Source: Myxococcales bacterium
GTDB taxonomy: Bacteria > Myxococcota_A > Polyangia > Haliangiales > Haliangiaceae
Length of the DNA stretch: 64,000 bases
Direction of reading: 5' to 3'
NCBI GenBank assembly: GCA_016707895.1
Contig: JADJGV010000034.1
Span: 821,625-885,624, forward strand
Shown here one piece after another: positions 3,318 to 47,027 of this stretch. Positions within the stretch are counted from its first letter, which is position 1; every line of letters begins with the position of its first letter. The position numbers were made by a program, and so were the translations under genes. The notes beneath the pieces were generated by a model, which saw only the letters and a program-made list of their open reading frames with translations, was not told the DNA's origin and did not search any database.

Positions 3318-6300
3318 TCAGGCGCCGAAGAGGCGGAGCAGGGCGACGGGGGCGATGGCGCCGCGGCGCTGGAGCTCGGCGACGACGGCGGCGTGCTCGG
3401 CGGCGCCGGCGGTGCCGCCGACCAGCGTGGCGACCCGGGCGCGCGCGGCCAGCGCGAACCCAGCCATGCCGGCGGCGGTGGCGGCGCGGCCGGCCTCGAC
3501 GTAGGCGGCGCGGGCGCGGGCCGGCTCGGCGCGCAGCTCGGCCAGGTGGCCGCGGGCCAGCGCGGTGAGCGGCGCGGCCCAGTCGGCGCCTTCGCGCTCG
3601 ACGCGCTGCACGCAGTCGTGCGCGACCCGCAGGCGCGCGGCGCGATCGTGCGGCTCGGCGGCGGCCGCCGCCAGCGCGGCGCGGGCGTGCAGCAGATCGG
3701 CCTCGACGCGCGTCAGCTGCAAGCCGATCAGCGGTGAGCGCCACAGCCGCGGCCAGGCGGCGTCGATCGTGGCCAGCGCCCGCGCCGCGTCGCCGCGGTA
3801 CAGGTCGACCTTGGCCGTGGCGACGGCGCGGAAGTAGTGGTGCAGGTGGAACTCGTCGTCGTCGGTGCGGTGGTCGAAGCCGGCCTCGGCCATCGCCAGC
3901 GCGTCGGCCGGGCGATCGACGATCAGCCAGTACAGGTTGCCGCGGCCGGTGCGCAGCCCGCCCAGCGCGTGGACGTCGCCCAGCTCCTCGGCCTCGGCCA
4001 GCTGCCGCGGGATCGAGGCGATCAGCCCGGCGAGGTCGCCGAGGTACCAGCGGGCGGCGGGCTGGAAGAACTGCACCAGGTTGAGCGCCCAGCGCACGCC
4101 GACGTAGTCGCGCTGCTGGGCCTCGGCCGCGCGCAGCCGGCGGTCGGCCTCGCGCCAGCGCCCGGTGAGCGCGGCGGCCACGCCGGCCCCGCCCTCGAGC
4201 AGCGCGGCCAGCTCGGGGCGGCCGAGCTCGTCGCACAGCGCCCGCGCCGCGGCCTCGACCGCCGCGGTGGCGGTCGCGGACTTGGTGCCGCCGTGGGCGG
4301 TGTGCGCGATCTCGATGCACAGCACCCGCGCCACCCGCTCGGGATCGCCGAGCGCGCGCGCCGCGTCGAGCAGGTGCAGCTGCGGCACGCGCGCCAGCGC
4401 CGGGTTGACGTAGGCCAGGCCGGCGGTCAGCGACCACAGCGTGTCGACCACCGCGCGCTCGCGATCGGTGACCTGCTCGGGCGTGCGGCGGGTGAAGCCG
4501 AAGCCGCGGACCCGGCGGGCCAGCCCCTCGGCCAGGAGCTTGGCCGCCCCGGCGGTGCGGCCGAGCGTGACGCCGGCGCCCAGCTCGTCGCACAGCGCCT
4601 GCGCGTCGGCCAGGCCGCGCCGCAGGTCGCCGCTGCGCAGCGCGTACTCGATCTGCATCCGGCGCAGCGCGATGGCCTCGGCCGGCGTGGCGTCGGGCAG
4701 CGCCGCCGCCAGCGTCGCCAGCGCGGCCTCGATGCGCCCGACGTTGGCGTGGCACTCGGCCTGCCGCCGGCGCAGCGCGACCCGGTGCGCGGGCGTCGCC
4801 GCGCCGGCCAGCGCGACCTCGTACATCGCCGCGGCGTGGCGGAACGCAAGGCTGGCCTCGGCGGCCAGCGCGGCGCGCTCGGCGTGCGGCGCGGCCCGGG
4901 CGGGCTCGCCGGCGGCGCGCCAGTGGGCGACCAGCTCGTCGAGCGGCGGCGCTGGCAGCCGCTCCAGCTCGGCGGCGAGCCGGGCGTGCAGCGCGGCGGC
5001 GGCGGCGGCCGGCAGCGCCGCCAGCGCCGCGGCGCGGATGCGATCGTGGTAGGGTTCGACGTACCACTCGCCGTGGGCCCTGCCGCCCACCAGCAGCCGC
5101 TCGCTGCACAGCCGGGTCAGCGCGGCCAGCCCGTCGCCCAGCCCAGCGGCGGCGATCGCGAACGGCAGCGGCCGGGCGGCCACCGCGGCGAGCGCCAGCA
5201 GCCCGCGGGCGTCGTCGTCGAGCGCGGCCAGCCGGCGGGCCAGCACCTGCTCGAGGCTGGCCGGCGCGGCGGCGGCGTCGGCGGCGCGGTGGCGGGCCAG
5301 CTCGACCAGCAGGAACGGCGTGCCGGCGGCCGCGTCGTCGAGCGCCGCGTCGTCGGCGCCGATCGCCGCGCGCAGCGCGTGGGCCGCGGCGCGATCGAGC
5401 GGGCCCACCGCGAGGTCGCGGACGACGATCGGCGAGCGGCCGCTGGGCTGGGCGACGTCGGTCAGGCGCACCGTCGGCGTGCCGGCGTCGTTCGGCAGCG
5501 CGGCGGCCGGCGTGTCGAGCGGCCGCGACGACAGCACGAACAACGCGCCGGTCCCGACGAAGTAGCGCACCAGCTCGCCGAGCAGGCCGGCGGTGTCGGC
5601 GTTGCTCCACTGCATGTCGTCGAGGAACACCACCGGCAGGCGATCGCCGGCCAGGCGCTGGATCAGCTCGGCGCACGCGGTCACGGCGCGGCGCCGCAGC
5701 TCGGCCGGATCGGCCGGCACCCGCCCCAGCGCTCGCGCGGTGGCGACCGCCTGGACCCGCGCCAGCGCCGGGAACAGCCGCGCCAGCGCCGCGACGTCGC
5801 GCGGCATCGACGCCGCCGCGCGCTCGGCCGGCATCGCCGCCAGCGCGTTGGCCAGGGCGTCGACCATGGTCTCGATGGCCGGGTAGGGCACGGTCTCGCG
5901 CTGGTGGCAGCGGCCGGTCAGCACCAGCGCCGCGCCCGGCTCGAGGCTGGCCAGGTAGTGGCGCACCAGCGCGGTCTTGCCGATGCCCGAGGCGCCGGTC
6001 AGCGCGACCACGACGCTGTCGCCGTCGCGCGCGGTCGCGAACGCCGCCGCCAGCGCGCCCAGCTCGGCGGCGCGACCGACGAACGGCGGCGCCGCGGTGC
6101 GCTCGGCCACCGCGCGGGTGGCCGAGGTCGGCTGGCGGCCCAGCGCGGCCAGCAGCACCGCGCCGTCGCCGCGGCGCGCCGGGCTGCGATCGAGCAGCCG
6201 CATGCAGGCGGCGTCGAGCTCGGGCGGCACGGTCGGCACCAGCGCCCGCGGCGGCGGCGGATCCTCGGCGACCCGGCGCGCCATCACCTGATCGCGGGTG

Positions 6301-39164: not shown

Positions 39165-39596
39165 ATGGGTGAACCGCTGCCGGCGCACGCCGGGTTCCTG
39201 GGGACCTGGGTGCTGCTGCCCGAGACCTGCGTCTACGAGCAGGGCCTGCCGCCGCGCGCCGGCACCTACCGCATCGAGGAGGACGGCGACGCGCTGCGGT
39301 TCACGATCGACTGGATCGCGGCCGACGGCGCCGCCCACGCGGTGACGTTCGCCGGGCGCCCCGACGGGGTCGCGGTCCCGTTCGCCGGCGGCGACGCGGT
39401 CGACGCGATGGCGATCACGCTGGCGTCGCCCCGCGACCTGCGCTCGACGGCGTTCTGGCGCGGGCAGGAGCGAATGGTCGCGCAGCGGCAGCTCGACGCC
39501 CGCGGCGACGCGATGCGCGTGACCCAGCTGGTGCGGTTCGCCGACGGCACCCACGCCGCCAACGTCGCCGTGTACCGGCGCCACGCGCCGTCGTGA
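39165..39596 (+). CDS. Hypothetical protein (lipocalin-like/beta-rich)
   Basis: Clean frame MGEPLPAHAGFLGTWVLLPE... Confidence 0.5.
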   Translation: MGEPLPAHAGFLGTWVLLPETCVYEQGLPPRAGTYRIEEDGDALRFTIDWIAADGAAHAVTFAGRPDGVAVPFAGGDAVDAMAITLASPRDLRSTAFWRGQERMVAQRQLDARGDAMRVTQLVRFADGTHAANVAVYRRHAPS

Positions 39597-39653
39597 CCTG
39601 CGCGGCGTGCGCCCACTCGAGGTCGAGCAGCGTCGGGCAGCTGGTGTCGCCGG

Positions 39654-40562
39654 TCACGGCGCGCGCACGGTCTCGACGTGGACGAACTGGTCGGCGTAGC
39701 TCTCGAGCACGGCGCAGCCGCGCGGCGTCTCGAGCCGGGCCTGGTGGTGGACCTCGATCCACGCGTTCTCGATGTACGTGCCGATGCCGGTCTCGCCGGC
39801 GAGGATCAGCCGATCGAGGAGCGCCGCGGGGATCGTGAGCTCGCCGGCGGCGGCGGGCGCGACGCACTCGACGTAGGCGCGGACGCCGTGGTGATCGCTG
39901 TCGAAGTGCACGAGCACCTCGGCCTCGGCCGGCGTGGCGATCGGGGTCCACGCGACGTCCATCGGCGCGTGCTCGCGCGCGACCAGCTGGGTGGTCGGCA
40001 AGGCCAGCGGCGGCACGCCGCGCACGGTCGCCGAAAGCGCCGCGACCGGGCCGGCGCCGGCCAGCGCCAGCGTGATCGGATCGCCGGGGCGGTACAGGCC
40101 AGGGTAGCCCTGGTCGGCGTAGTAGCCGTTGCCGGCGCGCGGCGTCAGCGTCACCGGCGGCGTCGTGCCGGTAACGGTGAACGCGCCCGCGGCCAGCGCC
40201 TCGGGGTAGTCGGCGCAGCGCCCGTCGACGTCGCACACCTGGGCGCCGCCGCAGGCCGGCTCGCACAGCGCCGGGCGCGCGCCGACGAACCGGCAGCTGC
40301 CCTCGGTGAGCAGCGTCGCCTCGAGGCGCGGGTGCGGGAACGCCAGCAGCTGGCCGCCGACCTGGCTGCCGAGGCGCGCGCTGGCGCCGGGCTCGGCGAC
40401 GACCGAGAACCGCGCGCTGGGTTCGCGGTCGCTGGCGCAGCTGGGGTCGACGGGCGGGCCGTCGGGGCCGGCGTCGCCGCCGCTTGCGCCGTCGCCGCCG
40501 CAGCCGGCGTGGGCGACGAGCAGCGCGAGCGACCAGGTGGCGCGGAGCAGCGGCGGGCGCAT
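39654..40562 (-). CDS. Secreted Cys-containing lipoprotein
   Basis: Signal peptide plus lipobox LLVAHAGCGG. Confidence 0.6.
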   Translation of the reverse strand: MRPPLLRATWSLALLVAHAGCGGDGASGGDAGPDGPPVDPSCASDREPSARFSVVAEPGASARLGSQVGGQLLAFPHPRLEATLLTEGSCRFVGARPALCEPACGGAQVCDVDGRCADYPEALAAGAFTVTGTTPPVTLTPRAGNGYYADQGYPGLYRPGDPITLALAGAGPVAALSATVRGVPPLALPTTQLVAREHAPMDVAWTPIATPAEAEVLVHFDSDHHGVRAYVECVAPAAAGELTIPAALLDRLILAGETGIGTYIENAWIEVHHQARLETPRGCAVLESYADQFVHVETVRAP

Positions 40563-40640
40563 CGCGGCGAGTCTACCAGCCGCACCCGCGGTGGCGGCGC
40601 GCCGATGGCGAGCGCGGCGGTCGGGGCGTAGAGTCGGGCG

Positions 40641-42506
40641 ATGTCCGCCGCACCCCGCGTCTGCTGCGCGCTGGTCGTGGTGGTCGCGCTCGTCGGCCAC
40701 GCCGGCCGGGCGACGGCCACCGAGTACACCGCGGGGCCGGCGGACTACCGCGACGTCGTCGCCCGGCTGCAGCCCGGCGACGTGTTGACGCTGGCGCCGG
40801 GGACCTACACCCGCACGCTGCCGATCACCGGCGTCAACGGTCGGGCCGACGCGTGGATCACCATCCGCGGCCCGGCGAGCGGCGCGCCCGCGGTGTTCAC
40901 CGCCGATCCGGGCCCGTGCTGCAACACCGTCGAGCTGGTCGACGCGAGCTACCTCGCGCTCGAGCACCTGGTGATCGACGGCGGCGGCGTCGCCGGCGCG
41001 TTCGGCATCAGCGCCAAGGCGGGCGCGGTCCACCACATCCGCGTCGAGGCCTGCGAGCTGCGCGGGCACGGCGCGACGCAGCAGACCGTGGCGATCTCGA
41101 CCAAGGTCGCGACGTGGGGCTGGGTGATCCGCGGCAACCGCATCCGCGACGCCGGCACCGGCCTGTACCTCGGCAACTCCGACGGCTCGGCGCCGTTCGT
41201 CGAGGGCGTGATCGAGCACAACCTGGTGACCGGGACGGTCGGCTACGGCATGCAGATCAAGTTCCAGACCGCACGACCGGCGGGGCTGCCGCCCGGGCCG
41301 ACGCGCACGCTCATCCGCCACAACGTGTTCGTCAAGGACGACCGGCCCAGCCCCGACGGCGATCGGCCGAACCTGCTGGTCGGTGGCTTCCCGGCGAGCG
41401 GCGCCGGCGCCGACGATCGCTACGAGATCTACGGCAACCTGCTCGTGCACAACCCGCGCGAGGCGCTGCTGCAGGCGTCGGGGCGGGTCAGCATCCACGA
41501 CAACGTCCTGGTCGACGTCGCCGGCGCCGCGATCGTGCTGGCCGATCACGATCGGCCGCTGGTCAGCGCGCGCGTCTACCACAACACCATCTTCGGGGCC
41601 GGCACCGGCGTCGACGTCGCCAGCGCGGGCGACGCGGCGGCCGGCGGCGTGGCGGTGGCGGGCAACCTGATCTTCGCGGCGACGCCGATCGCGGGCGCGA
41701 CGCGGGCGCGGGTCGCCGACAACCAGACCGGCGCCGAGGCCGACGCCGCCGCGGTGGTGGCAGCGCCGTCGCGCATCCTCGGGGCGATGGACTTCTACCC
41801 GCGGCCGGGGCAGGCCCAGGGCCCCGCGATCGACGCGGCGATCCTGGCCGACGACGTCGACGCGCGGCGTGACTTCAACGGCGCCGACAAGGGTGGCCTC
41901 GGGTTCCGCGGCGCCTACGCCGGCGCGGGCGCCAACCCGGGCTGGCCGCTGGCCGAGGACGTCAAGGTGCTCGGGGCCGGCGCCGGTGATCCCGACGGCG
42001 GGGCCGGCGGCGGCGAAGCCTCGGCGGGTGGCTGCGGGTGCGCCAGCGGTGGCGACGCTGGCGCGGTGCTGGTGCTGCCGGTGGTGGCGGCCCTCGCGCG
42101 GCGGCGTCGGCGGGCCGCGGCGCGGTGCGCCGTCCTGGTGGTCGCCGTCGCGGCCGGCGGGTGCGGTGGGCCGGCGCCGCGCGCGGCCCCGCCCGCGAAC
42201 ACGACCGCCACGCCGACGCCGCTGGCGCCGCCGCCGCCCGAGCCGTGGTTCCACGACAAGCCCGACGCCTACGCCGAGTGCGCCGCGCCGCCGTCGGCCG
42301 CACCGGCGGTGGCGTTGCCGGCGCCGTACGAGCGCTGCGACGGCGCCGAGGAGGGATGGGCCAGCCCACCCGGCGGCAACGAGCTGCACTTCCACTACCG
42401 CGCGTTCTCGGCCGCGGTCACCGCCGCGCGTCGGGTCGGCGACCCGGGCGTGTGCTGCTACCTGGTCTGGGAGTTCCCGAGCTTCCGGCCCGACGACGGA
42501 TCGTAG
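40641..42506 (+). CDS. Secreted right-handed parallel beta-helix (pectate-lyase-fold) protein containing an internal MYXO-CTERM-like segment followed by a second signal-like segment
   Basis: Signal peptide. Repeated beta-helix turns (NxxxGxxxG). GGCGCASGG...LVLPVVAALARRRRR occurs at aa ~468-495, yet the frame continues for a further ~125 aa. Confidence 0.6.
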   Translation: MSAAPRVCCALVVVVALVGHAGRATATEYTAGPADYRDVVARLQPGDVLTLAPGTYTRTLPITGVNGRADAWITIRGPASGAPAVFTADPGPCCNTVELVDASYLALEHLVIDGGGVAGAFGISAKAGAVHHIRVEACELRGHGATQQTVAISTKVATWGWVIRGNRIRDAGTGLYLGNSDGSAPFVEGVIEHNLVTGTVGYGMQIKFQTARPAGLPPGPTRTLIRHNVFVKDDRPSPDGDRPNLLVGGFPASGAGADDRYEIYGNLLVHNPREALLQASGRVSIHDNVLVDVAGAAIVLADHDRPLVSARVYHNTIFGAGTGVDVASAGDAAAGGVAVAGNLIFAATPIAGATRARVADNQTGAEADAAAVVAAPSRILGAMDFYPRPGQAQGPAIDAAILADDVDARRDFNGADKGGLGFRGAYAGAGANPGWPLAEDVKVLGAGAGDPDGGAGGGEASAGGCGCASGGDAGAVLVLPVVAALARRRRRAAARCAVLVVAVAAGGCGGPAPRAAPPANTTATPTPLAPPPPEPWFHDKPDAYAECAAPPSAAPAVALPAPYERCDGAEEGWASPPGGNELHFHYRAFSAAVTAARRVGDPGVCCYLVWEFPSFRPDDGS

Positions 42507-42515
42507 GCCCGGGCG

Positions 42516-43070
42516 ATGCGGCGCCCGGGGATGCGCGTCGTCCGCGCGCTCGGCGTCGTGGCGGCGACGATCGCGTTCGCCGCGATGTTGCTGATCGCGT
42601 GGCGGGCGCTCGGCGGCGCCAGCGTCGGGTTCGCCGTCGCGGTGGTGTGGCTGCCGATGACCTGGCTCGGCACGGTCAGCCACGTCGTGCCGTTCCGCTT
42701 GCCGGCCACGGTCCACGCGCTGCGCGGCTGGGAGCGCGACGGGCGGGTGTACGAGCGGCTGGGCGTCGGGCTGATCAAGCGGCTGCTGCGGCGCAGGCCG
42801 ATCGCGTGGTTCAACCCCGGCCTGCGGCTGCCCGCCGAGCGCAGCGCGGCCGGGCTCGCGACGCTCGCGCGACGGATGTCCACCGCCGAGGCCAGCCACG
42901 GGATCGCGCTGGTGCTCTCGCTGGGCGCGGTGGCCCACGCGGCGGCGCGCGGCTGGTGGTTGGCCGCCGCGGTGACGCTGGGCCTCGACGTGCTGATCAA
43001 CGGCTACCCGGTGATGCTGCAGCGCTACAACCGGGCCCGCCTGCGCGCCCGGTTCGGGGCCGGCGCCTGA
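42516..43070 (+). CDS. Small polytopic membrane protein (CrtO-like acyltransferase-family resemblance, NGYPVMLQRYNR motif)
   Basis: Four TM helices and a C-terminal N.YP.MLQRYNR motif. Confidence 0.5.
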   Translation: MRRPGMRVVRALGVVAATIAFAAMLLIAWRALGGASVGFAVAVVWLPMTWLGTVSHVVPFRLPATVHALRGWERDGRVYERLGVGLIKRLLRRRPIAWFNPGLRLPAERSAAGLATLARRMSTAEASHGIALVLSLGAVAHAAARGWWLAAAVTLGLDVLINGYPVMLQRYNRARLRARFGAGA

Positions 43071-43159
43071 GACCTCGCGAGACCTTCCTCACGCGACGTG
43101 GGGCCGGCCGTCGGGTGCGCGGGACTACCCCGTCGCCGTGGCGCGTTGATCCCGCGGTC

Positions 43160-44779
43160 ATGCGCGTCGTGCTGCTCGTCGCCGCGTGGCTGGCCGCCGC
43201 CGCGGCGCCGGTCGACGCCGATCGCTTCTCCGCGCCGGCGACCGCGATCGGCGACAACCCCGCCTGGGTGCGGACCCGGGCCGGCGCCGGCGCCGCGCGC
43301 GCCGCCGAGATGGACGAGGTGACGTTCCGCTACCACCTGCGGACCGCGCCCGCGTGGTCGGGCGTCGAGGACGTCGAGCGCACCGTCCGGCTCCACCAGG
43401 TCGATGGCTGGTTGCGGTCGCTGCTGGCGACGATGGCGGTCGGCGAGCGGCGGCGCGCGTGGGTCCGCGAGGTCGACCCTGACGGCTGCGACCACTTCGG
43501 CTGCGGGGCGATCCTCCGCCAGGTGGTCGACCTCGAGCTGGTCGGGCTGCGCGCGTTCCACGACGCGCTGCCGGGCGGGCGGGTGATCGCGAGCGACGGC
43601 GGGCGCCGGGTGGCGATCCGCCGCGGCGCGACCGTCGCGTGGCTGCCGGTGCCGTTCGCGATCGAGTCCCTCGACGAGGTGCGGCTGTCGCCGGGCGGCG
43701 TCGAGGTGACGGTCGTGCCGGCGTGCGGCGCGGGCGCCGTCCGCCTGACGTTCACCTTCGACCAGCTCGACGCGCGGCTCGAGCTCGCGGCGGCGCGCCG
43801 GCGGGAGCGGCGCGATCGCGCCGCGGCGATCGCCGGCTACCGGCGGGCGATCGCGCTCGACGCCAGCCTCGACGAGGCGCACGTCGGGCTGGCCCGCGCG
43901 CTGCTGCGGGCGGGGCGGCCGCGCGACGCGGTCGCGGCGGTGGCGCCCGTCCTGGCCCGCAACCCGGTGTGGCTCCACTGGCGCACGCTGGTCGAGCCCG
44001 GGCTGGCGGCCTTGCGGCGCGAGCCCGAGCTGCGGGCGCTGCGCGCGGCCGCGCCGGGCAGCTTCGACGTCACCGGCTTCCGCGTCGGCTACGGCGGCGG
44101 GGTGGTGACCTACGGGGTCGAGCCCCGCGGCCGCTACCTGGCCGCCCACACCGGCTACGACTGGAGCGCCGATCGCTTCGCCCAGGACGCGGTGTCGATC
44201 ATCGATCGCCGCACCGGCGCGGTGGTCGCGGTGCTGCCGCTGCGGCTGGTCGGCGGCGCCCGCGACGAGGTCGCCAGCGTCCAGCGCGCGCTGGCCGAGC
44301 TGGGCTTCGCGCCGGCCACCGGCGAGGTCGCGATGATCACGTCGCTCGATCCCGGGCGGGTCTGGCCGATCGACAACCGCGTGACGTTCGCGATCGCCGG
44401 CGTCGAGGCGATCCAGTCGCCGCGCGGCGTCGCGATCACCGGCGCCGCGATCGTCCCCGTGACGGCGCCGCCGGTCCCCGGCCCGATCACCGAAGCGCGC
44501 CTCTTGCCCGACGCGCTCGTCGTGCACGTCGACGATCGCCTGGCGTGCTGGGCCAACCCCCACGTGACCGCCGTGCTGGTGCCGCTGACCGCGCGCCCGC
44601 CGCCGCCGCCCACGCTGCCGCTGTCGCTCGCGCCGCCGCCGCGGCCGGCGGCGCCGCCGGGCGTGCGCGGGCCTCCGTCGGGGGCGACCGCGGGCTGCGC
44701 CGCGGCTGAACCGGGCGCGGCGCTGATCCTCGGCGTGCTCGGCGTCGGGGCGGCTCACCGCCGGCGCAGGAGGAAGTAG
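43160..44779 (+). CDS. Secreted TPR-containing protein with a C-terminal MYXO-CTERM sorting signal
   Basis: Signal MRVVLLVAAWLAAAAAPVDA. The protein ends ...SGATAGCAAAEPGAALILGVLGVGAAHRRRRRK*. Confidence 0.7.
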   Translation: MRVVLLVAAWLAAAAAPVDADRFSAPATAIGDNPAWVRTRAGAGAARAAEMDEVTFRYHLRTAPAWSGVEDVERTVRLHQVDGWLRSLLATMAVGERRRAWVREVDPDGCDHFGCGAILRQVVDLELVGLRAFHDALPGGRVIASDGGRRVAIRRGATVAWLPVPFAIESLDEVRLSPGGVEVTVVPACGAGAVRLTFTFDQLDARLELAAARRRERRDRAAAIAGYRRAIALDASLDEAHVGLARALLRAGRPRDAVAAVAPVLARNPVWLHWRTLVEPGLAALRREPELRALRAAAPGSFDVTGFRVGYGGGVVTYGVEPRGRYLAAHTGYDWSADRFAQDAVSIIDRRTGAVVAVLPLRLVGGARDEVASVQRALAELGFAPATGEVAMITSLDPGRVWPIDNRVTFAIAGVEAIQSPRGVAITGAAIVPVTAPPVPGPITEARLLPDALVVHVDDRLACWANPHVTAVLVPLTARPPPPPTLPLSLAPPPRPAAPPGVRGPPSGATAGCAAAEPGAALILGVLGVGAAHRRRRRK

Positions 44780-45153: not shown

Positions 45154-45831
45154 ATGCGCGTCGTCGCGGTCGCCGATACGCACCTGTTCCACGACGCGCG
45201 CTACGCGGTGCCCGACGGCGACGTCTTCGTCCACGCCGGCGACCTGTGCCGGCGCGGCGACCTCGACGAGCTGGCGGAGGCGGCGCGCTGGATCGCCGGC
45301 CTGCCGCACCGGCACAAGCTGATCGTGGCCGGCAACCACGACTGGGCCTTCGCCCGGCCGGCCGAGGCCGCGCGGGCGCGCGCGCTGCTCGGCGGCGCGG
45401 TCTACCTCGAGGACAGCGGCGTCGAGCTCGACGGGCTGCGCTGCTGGGGCAGCCCGTGGCAGCCGGCGTTCCACGGCTGGGCGTTCAACCTGCCGCGCGG
45501 CGACGCGCTGCGCGCCGTGTGGGCGCGCATCCCCGCGGGCCTCGACCTGCTGATCACCCACAGCCCGCCGGCCGGCATCGGCGATCACGCCGGCTGGAAC
45601 GACGCCGCGCGCGCCGGCTGCGCCGAGTTGCGGGCGCGCCTCGCCGTGGTCGCGCCGCGCTTGCACCTGTTCGGCCACATCCACCAGGACGGCGGGCTGT
45701 GGCGCGTCGGCGCGACGGTGCACGCCAACGTGACATCGTGGGAGTGCACGCGGGCGCCGACGGTGATCGATCTCGAGCCCGGCAGCGTCACGCCGATCGT
45801 GGTGCCGCCGGCCCGACCCGACGTCCCGTGA
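45154..45831 (+). CDS. Calcineurin-like metallophosphoesterase
   Basis: Motifs DTHL..., GD.......GNHD, GH.H. Confidence 0.8.
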   Translation: MRVVAVADTHLFHDARYAVPDGDVFVHAGDLCRRGDLDELAEAARWIAGLPHRHKLIVAGNHDWAFARPAEAARARALLGGAVYLEDSGVELDGLRCWGSPWQPAFHGWAFNLPRGDALRAVWARIPAGLDLLITHSPPAGIGDHAGWNDAARAGCAELRARLAVVAPRLHLFGHIHQDGGLWRVGATVHANVTSWECTRAPTVIDLEPGSVTPIVVPPARPDVP

Positions 45832-46550: not shown

Positions 46551-47027
46551 TCACCCGCGGGGGCGCAGCTCGACCTGCACGACGTCGCCGTCACCCTTGT
46601 CGCCGCGGACCTTCTTGGGCACCGCGAGCAGCGTGCCGTGCTTCTTGTCGCGCCACACGCTGGTCGCCCAGCTGACGCCGTCGACGGTCGCCAGCACCGG
46701 CGTCCGCCCCCAGGCGTGGGTCGCTGGCGGCGCGTGGCGCGCCGGCACCTTGGCGAACGTCCAGCCGCCCGCGCCGGGGTAGCGGAACAGCTTCGCGCGG
46801 AACGTCACGCGGCCATCATCGCGCCGCCGGCCGGTCGACGCCAGGTCGCGCTCGATCAAGGCCGCCGCGATCTGCAACGCCTTGATCCGCCGCACCAGCA
46901 GCGTGTGCTGCGCCGTGCCCGGCCGCAGCTTGGGCTGGACCTGCTCGCACTTGCTGACCGTCGAGACGATCGCCCGCAGCGCCTCCGCCAGCTCCGCCTT
47001 CGCGAACGGTGGGGTGGCGGCGGTCAC
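46551..47027 (-). CDS. DUF1905 (YdeI-like) domain protein
   Basis: Motif ...TFRAKLFRYPGAGGWTFAKVP.... Confidence 0.6.
   Translation of the reverse strand: MTAATPPFAKAELAEALRAIVSTVSKCEQVQPKLRPGTAQHTLLVRRIKALQIAAALIERDLASTGRRRDDGRVTFRAKLFRYPGAGGWTFAKVPARHAPPATHAWGRTPVLATVDGVSWATSVWRDKKHGTLLAVPKKVRGDKGDGDVVQVELRPRG

Follow-up and report, generated by a model that had tools for sequence, protein, structure and literature searches.

Architecture of the 621-codon reading frame

The window analyzed here is a 64,000-nucleotide (nt) stretch of a Myxococcales bacterium genome (assembly GCA_016707895.1, contig JADJGV010000034.1, positions 821,625 to 885,624). Our subject is one plus-strand open reading frame (ORF) within it, in which a MYXO-CTERM protein-sorting signal lies in the interior and is followed by a lipoprotein-type signal and a second protein domain. 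The ORF begins with an ATG at 40641, ends with a stop codon at 42504–42506, and encodes 621 amino acids (aa). Its frame is open throughout, with a third-position G+C fraction (GC3) of 0.96 in a window whose G+C content is ∼77% overall and 84% around the junction between the two parts. A gene for the 621-aa protein was called independently in assemblies L021, L022, and L023 (L and P numbers denote related nucleotide records and homologous proteins, respectively).

The product starts with a Sec-type signal peptide, MSAAPRVCCALVVVVALVGHAGRATA (aa 1–26, 40641..40718), whose predicted cleavage site precedes TEY. This segment reaches a hydropathy maximum of 3.15 over aa 2–23 and is colinear with the N termini of orthologs P0002 and P0003. 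A right-handed parallel beta-helix passenger (aa ∼27–445, 40719..41975) and a Gly/Ala linker evident in the translation (aa ∼446–463) follow. The internal MYXO-CTERM tripartite signal occupies 42027..42113 and consists of a GCGC motif (aa 464–467, 42030–42041) within GGCGCASGG (aa 462–470), a hydrophobic stretch AGAVLVLPVVAALA that corresponds to the transmembrane (TM) helix (aa 473–486, 42057–42098), and an RRRRR cluster (aa 487–491, 42099–42113). A second hydrophobic stretch, AAARCAVLVVAVAA (aa 492–505, 42114–42155), comes directly afterward, and only RRRRR separates the two segments, which have Kyte–Doolittle maxima of 2.57 and 2.46. With the arginines as n-region and AAARCAVLVVAVAA as h-region, a lipoprotein-type signal can be aligned with those of homologs over 42099..42164. 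Its lipobox ends at Cys508 (42162–42164) in AAGG/CGGPAP, the residue that aligns with the lipobox Cys of stand-alone homologs, and the mature lipoprotein domain of 114 aa extends over 42162..42503. The seam of the fusion lies at or beside the RRRRR cluster, which now has two roles: it forms the predicted cytoplasmic Arg tail of the tag and supplies the positive charge of the lipoprotein n-region.

A preliminary description of this DNA had recognized the internal MYXO-CTERM and the lipoprotein signal that follows it. The coordinates, profile hidden Markov model (HMM) searches with the excised segment, and the alignment of orthologs all agree with that account. The frame does continue past the tag as described, by 130 residues after the Arg cluster rather than the ∼125 estimated at first. 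A single frame maintains GC3 values of 0.85–1.0 across the junction and thus conceals no compensating frameshifts.

When the whole protein was searched with TIGR03901, the model that the preliminary description had proposed as a check, aa 463–491 scored 19.4 bits against a curated cutoff of 20 (E = 0.001). Excised fragments pass, scoring 22.4–23.8 bits with TIGR03901 and 16.6–18.4 bits with TIGR03382 (cutoff 15.85). In an alignment of homologs, the internal tag is colinear with the terminal tags of P0002–P0005, P0007, P0014, and P0095, and C465, G466, and C467 are nearly invariant among the aligned orthologs. This column-for-column correspondence with true C-terminal tags indicates that the MYXO-CTERM match is not due to chance. 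The GCGC motif with its Cys, the TM helix, and the Arg cluster are all present in the fused ORF. The tag is not at the extreme C terminus, as 130 residues follow it compared with 0–18 in orthologs.

The lipoprotein signal likewise has its usual layout, with an RRRRR-AAAR n-region, a CAVLVVAVAA h-region, and A-G-G-C at the cleavage site. This tetrapeptide is acceptable under the relaxed lipobox pattern. The n-region, h-region, and lipobox are colinear with the N-terminal signals of P0122, P0123, and P0124, and the lipobox Cys column is shared by the homologs with complete N termini (VAGGC, LVGGC, AATGC). In those homologs the signal is N-terminal; in the fused ORF it begins at about aa 487 of 621. 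The fused ORF fits the sequence definitions of both a MYXO-CTERM and a lipoprotein signal in everything except position within the protein.

The passenger matches the Pfam Beta_helix family (PF13229) with 32.3 bits against a cutoff of 25.9. In the AlphaFold model of the protein, aa 31–440 form stacked strands, with mean confidence values (pLDDT) of 88–98 per 10-residue block, mostly above 90. Foldseek matched the fold best to lacto-N-biosidases of family GH136 and to polysaccharide lyases of families PL6 and PL9, at 10–16% identity and with E-values down to 6.5e-10. A sequence search of the Protein Data Bank with the 621-aa protein gave no match. The modeled fold suggests that the beta-helix part is probably a carbohydrate-active surface protein.

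No Pfam or NCBIfam family matched the tail, and an AlphaFold model of the tail alone is unusable (pLDDT 52). Its family has conserved motifs (EPWFHDK, SPPGGNELHFHYR, and CCYLxWEFP) and four invariant Cys residues, and all invariant columns are retained in the fused ORF. This lipoprotein family (homologs P0122–P0149) has very few members and no annotation; the available record titles name metagenome-assembled genomes (MAGs) of Myxococcota, and no solved structure matches it. In comparisons with relatives, the ratio of nonsynonymous to synonymous substitution rates (dN/dS) is 0.31–0.40 for the tail, 0.21–0.40 for the beta-helix, and 0.37–0.50 for neighboring genes. With conserved columns kept and dN/dS values like those of the neighbors, the sequence of the fused gene gives no sign of decay.

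Two gene families and the junction that joins them

A search with the whole protein recovered ∼1300 homologs, many of them annotated as MYXO-CTERM proteins. The best 120 of these measure ∼480–660 aa, with a maximum of 656 aa, and their alignments span no more than 80% of the query. Nine aligned homologs and the two longest proteins (P0032 and P0066) end no more than ∼20 residues past the sorting signal, and P0006 terminates inside the sorting motif. The closest orthologs, P0002–P0005 (75–89% identical), stop 0–18 residues past the Arg-rich cluster. P0002 (89% identity) has the C terminus ...LTRRRRRRA, P0003 (84%) extends seven residues past the cluster, P0004 (78%) extends 18, and P0005 (75%) ends at the cluster itself (...RRGRGRR).

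When the last 127 residues were searched alone, 14 proteins of 87–214 aa were found. Three of them, P0122, P0123, and P0124, have 74–76% identity (BLASTP) over 90–96% of this tail query. Tail homologs with complete N termini have their own Met or Val start, a signal peptide, and a Cys in the Cys508 column. An exhaustive profile search of 1.84 billion representative proteins gave only 21 matching clusters for the tail, and none of the 17 with E ≤ 1e-10 (90–214 aa) is joined to a beta-helix. Record titles of the homologs name Myxococcales, Polyangiales, and Kofleriaceae MAGs, in keeping with the placement of this segment in Myxococcota that had been proposed from its MYXO-CTERM proteins.

The existence of separate beta-helix orthologs and stand-alone tail homologs indicates that the 621-aa ORF fuses two gene families. 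Alignment with orthologs, suggested earlier as a way to see where they terminate, revealed no diverged 621-aa ortholog; the only uninterrupted copies are contigs of the same species with 99.9–100% nucleotide identity. The initial proposal that a MYXO-CTERM protein had become fused to a downstream lipoprotein is therefore borne out, as orthologs stop at the tag and tail homologs all stand alone. From these comparisons and the assemblies described below, we conclude with good confidence that the ORF is a genuine in-frame fusion of a MYXO-CTERM beta-helix gene with a small lipoprotein gene, one that has become fixed in the population sampled.

The continuity of the frame was examined in other assemblies. 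Two short-read contigs of the same species, L005 and L013, break at the junction. L005 (SPAdes, 99.9% identical to the window) is chimeric past window position 42002, where its positions 3490–3775 are an unrelated GGDEF-like fragment. L013 (ERR712391, wastewater, 1491 nt), compared with window 41600–43078, is a foldback that lacks 42108–42204. Its order is forward 41600–41753, the reverse complement of 41670–42107, and forward 42205–43078, and the switch points lie at inverted microhomologies of 7–9 nt (GGCGTCGGC and CCGCCAC). This foldback is either a chimeric-read artifact or a structural variant that destroys both signals. The public contigs of L005 and of L003, which carries a related beta-helix gene, are both interrupted where G+C reaches 84%. 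As L005 and L013 illustrate, a contig that breaks at so GC-rich a junction does not by itself prove a longer assembly wrong.

A lookup of the exact product of the CrtO-like neighbor (42516–43070) identified 21 contigs, five of which span the junction. L021 (SRR5580754), L022 (GCA_964269055.1, a 373-kb contig), L023 (SRR11674054), and L024 (SRR11674051) all match the window without a difference from 41900 to 42515. L028 (GCA_020050275.1) has one single-nucleotide polymorphism, 42114 G>C (A492P), and its frame is open. This is the sole junction polymorphism among the independent assemblies, and it falls directly after RRRRR, where the hairpin is predicted to turn. Any two of the fused copies share at least 99.9% identity. 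Because five independent assemblies have an open junction (four identical and one with the polymorphism), the idea of an assembly error was dropped, and the read-level doubt raised earlier over 42095–42130 is answered. The other two frames at the junction are open to 42594 and 44779. Close by, a single substitution could create an in-frame stop at just one codon, TGC at 42126, and termination there would leave the lipoprotein signal with only LVVAVAAGGC, which is unusable. No single-base change, therefore, restores two normal genes.

The genomic surroundings provide a second view of the fusion. On the left is a divergent gene for a 302-aa lipoprotein (39654..40562, minus strand), which is 84–87% identical to the gene beside the stand-alone lipoprotein gene in L012, L009, and L019. 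On the right is a gene for a CrtO-like membrane protein (42516..43070, plus strand; Pfam PF18927, E = 9.5e-19), which starts 10 nt past the stop codon of the fused ORF and also follows the stand-alone lipoprotein gene in L019, L012, and L013. L019, a Myxococcales MAG, has 85–94% nucleotide identity to the window, and L012 and L009–L011 are similar. These loci share with the window the order flavodoxin-like gene, LysR gene, 143-aa gene, and 302-aa gene (minus strand), and L019 additionally has the TPR MYXO-CTERM gene and a metallophosphatase gene. None of them has a beta-helix gene at the locus.

BLAST alignments of L019, L012, and L009 with the left flank run 33–67 nt into the ORF, to window positions 40676–40707, and resume at 42083–42155. 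For L019, whose lipoprotein gene lies at 3953–4366, the alignment picks up again with window 42083 opposite L019 3952, the base just ahead of the GTG start of that gene. These alignments indicate that the window and the closest syntenic genomes differ by an in-frame indel of ∼1.45 kb (483–491 codons) within one orthologous ORF. The codons of this block specify the mature beta-helix together with the MYXO-CTERM and a portion of a signal peptide. Since the promoter and start, and then everything from lipobox to stop, are orthologous, the two states differ by an in-frame indel rather than by a point change. A lost stop or a frameshift had been offered earlier as the simplest cause of the fusion; the fusion is not due to a frameshift, and a simple lost stop cannot be shown.

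Two histories may account for this pattern. A beta-helix cassette may have been inserted between the leaderless start and the lipoprotein signal, with the right crossover in the CGG/CGC run of Arg codons. Alternatively, an ancestral tandem pair may have lost the stop codon and spacer here and the whole beta-helix gene in sister lineages. An alignment of both signals in the window with those of relatives was too ambiguous to tell insertion from deletion. If the fused form was ancestral to the group, then the stand-alone lipoprotein genes of sister genomes would be in-frame deletion derivatives. An ancient operon of beta-helix and tail genes was also considered, but two sets of genomes speak against it. 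The more distant tail-carrying genomes L014–L018 and L020 have no beta-helix gene within 4 kb, and L001, L002, and L004, in which beta-helix orthologs occupy other gene contexts, have no tail gene at these loci. The closest beta-helix, in L003 (89% identical), lies beside a 97-aa gene that flanks the locus in L009 (87% identity). L003 ends at an Illumina adapter, AGATCGGAAGAGC (L003 3222–3246), a few bases past the beta-helix stop codon.

The n-region of the stand-alone lipoprotein signal contains a 9-nt tandem unit, CGC CGC GTC (encoding RRV), which is seen when L019 3953–3994 is compared with L012 1690–1722. L019 has three copies of the unit (MPPVRRVRRVRRVI), whereas L012 has two (MPPVRRVRRVI). 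Such variation in repeat length is the kind of Arg-codon variation that could mediate the junction in the window. In L004, the ATG of a gene for a 100-aa Cys-rich lipoprotein (3509–3811) overlaps the stop codon of the beta-helix MYXO-CTERM gene (ATGA). This protein was tested as a relative of the tail and rejected, as it belongs to a different family (E = 3.9). A small lipoprotein gene placed tightly after this beta-helix gene is thus found more than once.

Two genes found in close relatives are missing from the window. A minus-strand gene for a 97-aa Cys-rich lipoprotein lies between the 143-aa and 302-aa genes (window 39596–39654; L019 2690–2967), and a minus-strand gene for an LCM-family methyltransferase lies between the CrtO-like and TPR genes (window 43070–43160; L019 4974–5825). 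Together with the beta-helix indel, these differences mark the locus as a hotspot of gene gain and loss. The TPR protein gene in the window (43160..44779, plus strand; assigned with Pfam, TIGR03382, and TIGR03901) encodes a true C-terminal MYXO-CTERM ending in ...GCAAAEPGAALILGVLGVGAAHRRRRRK. It scores 16.2 bits with TIGR03382, above the cutoff, and 17.3 bits with TIGR03901, below the cutoff. The earlier reading of this neighbor as one with a real terminal tag is correct. A 1094-aa minus-strand frame (39654–42938) that is antisense to the beta-helix is a product of the scarcity of stop codons at 77% G+C. Only its last 302 codons are a real gene, that of the minus-strand lipoprotein, and its N-terminal part is frame noise.

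Translation start, predicted processing, and alternative explanations

A −10-like hexamer, TAGAGT (40629..40634, plus strand), is located 6 nt upstream of the ATG of the fused ORF, and the same hexamer is found 6–7 nt ahead of the stand-alone lipoprotein ORFs in L019, L012, L009, and L006. The position of TAGAGT makes it a probable promoter of a leaderless transcript. Hexamers of the form TAnnnT are rare in the window (56 on both strands), and 14 of them (25%) lie 5–8 nt before the ATG or GTG of a high-GC3 ORF of at least 100 aa, compared with 2.7% of random positions. Examples include 40629–40634 (plus strand), 40570–40575 (minus strand), and those ahead of starts at 45154 and 58621 (plus strand) and at 47027 and 18793 (minus strand). 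By this measure, the organism seems to make common use of leaderless genes. The 78-nt divergent intergenic region (40563–40640) contains two back-to-back −10-like hexamers, each 6–7 nt from a start codon: TAGACT before the minus-strand gene of the 302-aa lipoprotein, TAGAGT before the fused ORF. A scan of 40300–43300 for sigma-70 and terminator consensus sequences found nothing, as expected at 77% G+C.

Two in-frame GTG codons (42081..42086, plus strand) are candidates for an internal start of the lipoprotein. Between 41950 and 42084 there is no TA dinucleotide, and hence no TAnnnT hexamer, and no Shine–Dalgarno-like sequence is evident before GTG 42081 or 42084. The absence of these elements suggests that the tail is probably made only within the long protein.

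The two sorting signals are compatible with each other in topology. A MYXO-CTERM helix runs from periplasm to cytoplasm, and a signal peptide has its n-region inside and runs outward. A model for processing can be proposed on this basis. The beta-helix would be exported by Sec until the MYXO-CTERM helix stopped transfer in an outside-to-inside orientation. The RRRRR cluster would remain in the cytoplasm, and the h-region would then re-insert from inside to outside and export the tail, so that a tight helical hairpin results. The GCGC cysteine would be lipidated, after which the myxosortase MrtX would free the beta-helix and type II secretion would carry it to the cell surface. At the other end of the hairpin, Lgt would lipidate Cys508 and LspA would cut there. 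The outcome would be the same two mature lipid-anchored proteins that two genes would yield, plus a discarded hairpin of ∼40 aa. Because its end products would equal those of the two-gene arrangement, the fusion would be nearly neutral under this model, which would explain its persistence. That the fused product undergoes the complete pathway, with a hairpin and both cleavages, is a tentative proposal to which we give somewhat less than even chances. A broader version, in which the ORF is a natural self-resolving secretory polyprotein whose mirror-image tag and signal have been spliced at a shared Arg cluster into an excisable TM hairpin, is more doubtful still. If true, then a single leaderless ORF would deliver both a surface protein, through MrtX and type II secretion, and a lipoprotein, through Lgt and LspA.

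Several observations weigh against this interpretation. The TIGR03901 score of the whole protein is 0.6 bit below the cutoff, and the processing model was deduced entirely from sequence. At 14 residues the first helix is short, and only five Arg residues would make up the loop. In the full-length AlphaFold model, pLDDT is below 50 over most of the hairpin and tail (aa 453–621), so this part is uninformative. We found no literature on the action of Lgt or LspA at a lipobox located after a TM hairpin, or on an internal lipobox, and searches for "C-terminal lipobox" and related topics yielded nothing relevant. In addition, since the fused copies are all at least 99.9% identical, the fusion may be young, and the dN/dS values mostly reflect history before the fusion.

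The near identity of the copies also bears on the most serious rival, in which the fusion is real but harmful or dead: a recent event that leaves one or both parts mis-sorted at a locus on its way to becoming a pseudogene. For example, the beta-helix might be kept in the inner membrane if myxosortase acts only where the cytoplasmic tail is free and short, or export of the tail domain might never occur. A young fusion of this kind would be in keeping with a locus where the 97-aa gene, the LCM gene, and the beta-helix gene have been gained or lost among close relatives, and with the lack of a beta-helix gene there in the closest of these. Yet the fused form is the sole allele across at least five data sets, the two sorting signals are undamaged, every conserved residue is kept, and the signals are topologically compatible. 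Internal sorting tags are also processed in other systems, according to the statement in PMC11980579 that cites its refs 45 and 46. We therefore consider a harmful fusion unlikely, while giving it more weight than any other alternative. Independent initiation of the lipoprotein at GTG 42081 or 42084, which would make the read-through tail on the beta-helix incidental, is improbable to a greater degree. GTG 42084 does align with the GTG start of the L019 lipoprotein gene, and an internal start would give a 26-residue signal, MAALARRRRRAAARCAVLVVAVAAGG followed by Cys, that is one residue longer than that of P0122. However, the upstream sequence offers neither a −10-like TAnnnT nor a Shine–Dalgarno-like element to genes that seem reliant on leaderless starts. 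GTG (Val) is moreover frequent in TM-coding sequence, so the match may be due to chance, and even if the codon were used, the long ORF would still be translated through.

Two further explanations would do away with the fusion of two proteins altogether, and both appear highly improbable. What follows the beta-helix could be, rather than a second protein, a module dedicated to C-terminal anchoring like those of NCBIfam "lipo-invert" (NF058595). In the ORF, the only matches of this model fall on exactly the TM segment, Arg cluster, h-region, and lipobox (profile positions 37–87 of 113), and it also matches the signal peptide of P0122. The sub-threshold scores of 17.9–18.9 bits are half of the curated cutoff of 37, however, and the tail is a conserved globular family that stands alone in other genomes, while beta-helix orthologs end at the MYXO-CTERM. 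No literature on NF058595 was found. It is equally hard to regard the fusion as an artifact, with a stop codon and short spacer of the real genome lost because the GC-rich (84%) junction was collapsed or miscalled. That L005 and L013 both break exactly at this place could be taken as a sign of such an error. A junction 37-mer had no match in JGI metagenome contigs, which is uninformative because no close beta-helix ortholog exists there. Against an artifact are the five assemblies from different runs or projects that carry the open junction, and the fact that two normal genes are not restorable by a single substitution or indel, with the other frames being open as well. The shared Arg-codon repeat of ∼15 nt is also too short to collapse at normal k-mer sizes. 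The in-frame fusion of two genes thus remains the preferred reading.

Comparison with known systems

MYXO-CTERM signals are tripartite and are cleaved by MrtX, a CPBP-family protease; an Lgt-like enzyme probably lipidates their Cys, and type II secretion moves the product to the cell surface (PMC11980579). The fused ORF shares its GCGC motif and invariant Cys with canonical proteins such as TraA and with P0002–P0005, as well as the short TM helix and the Arg cluster. Its passenger is of the same family as those of P0002–P0005 and its tag is colinear with theirs, which are terminal (0–18 residues after the tag) compared with the 130 residues that follow here.

On the other side of the junction, P0122–P0124 and the L019 gene at 3953–4366 are orthologous to the fused ORF at promoter and start, lipobox, mature domain, and stop. 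The mature domain is ∼80% identical to those of the stand-alone lipoproteins, and the downstream gene is also shared with L019 and L012. Unlike the fused ORF, the stand-alone lipoproteins are 130–138 aa long, with an N-terminal signal and no beta-helix. Judged by the name of the family, the sub-threshold match to NF058595 suggests a similar logic of hairpin plus lipobox, although the fused ORF is not a member.

That sorting tags can function internally is indicated in PMC11980579, at least where it cites its refs 45 and 46. One of these concerns an ArtA substrate of Haloferax volcanii in which, as cited there, a tripartite tag that is not C-terminal is processed (Abdul Halim et al. 2017, ref 46 in PMC11980579). 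That case differs in that it involves an archaeosortase, a tag of the PGF-CTERM type, an archaeon, and a Tat substrate.

The closest parallel is MXAN_5598 of Myxococcus xanthus, whose internal MYXO-CTERM was ascribed to gene fusion and whose N-terminal part was proposed to be still processed and anchored at the surface (Guo, Haft and Wall, mBio 2025; PMC11980579). Both proteins have an N-terminal passenger and then a complete, non-terminal MYXO-CTERM, and in both the downstream region must cross the inner membrane. As in fusions of the MXAN_5598 type, the two parts exist separately in relatives of the fused ORF, and its frame is continuous in five independent assemblies. The partner in MXAN_5598 is an outer-membrane beta-barrel with an OmpA domain, an arrangement of TraA/TraB-like logic. 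Here, by contrast, the partner is a lipoprotein of 114 aa; its own lipobox signal directly adjoins the Arg cluster, and its unfused form is visible in syntenic relatives.

The fused ORF is a second natural internal MYXO-CTERM, after MXAN_5598. Unlike for MXAN_5598, close relatives show both the lipoprotein and the beta-helix in unfused form, and the position of the seam is known to within a few codons. The protein is a ready-made substrate with which to ask whether myxosortase can cut a non-terminal tag and whether Lgt and LspA can act after a TM hairpin. It also serves as a warning for annotation that HMMs built for C-terminal sorting tags can rightly match in the middle of a protein.

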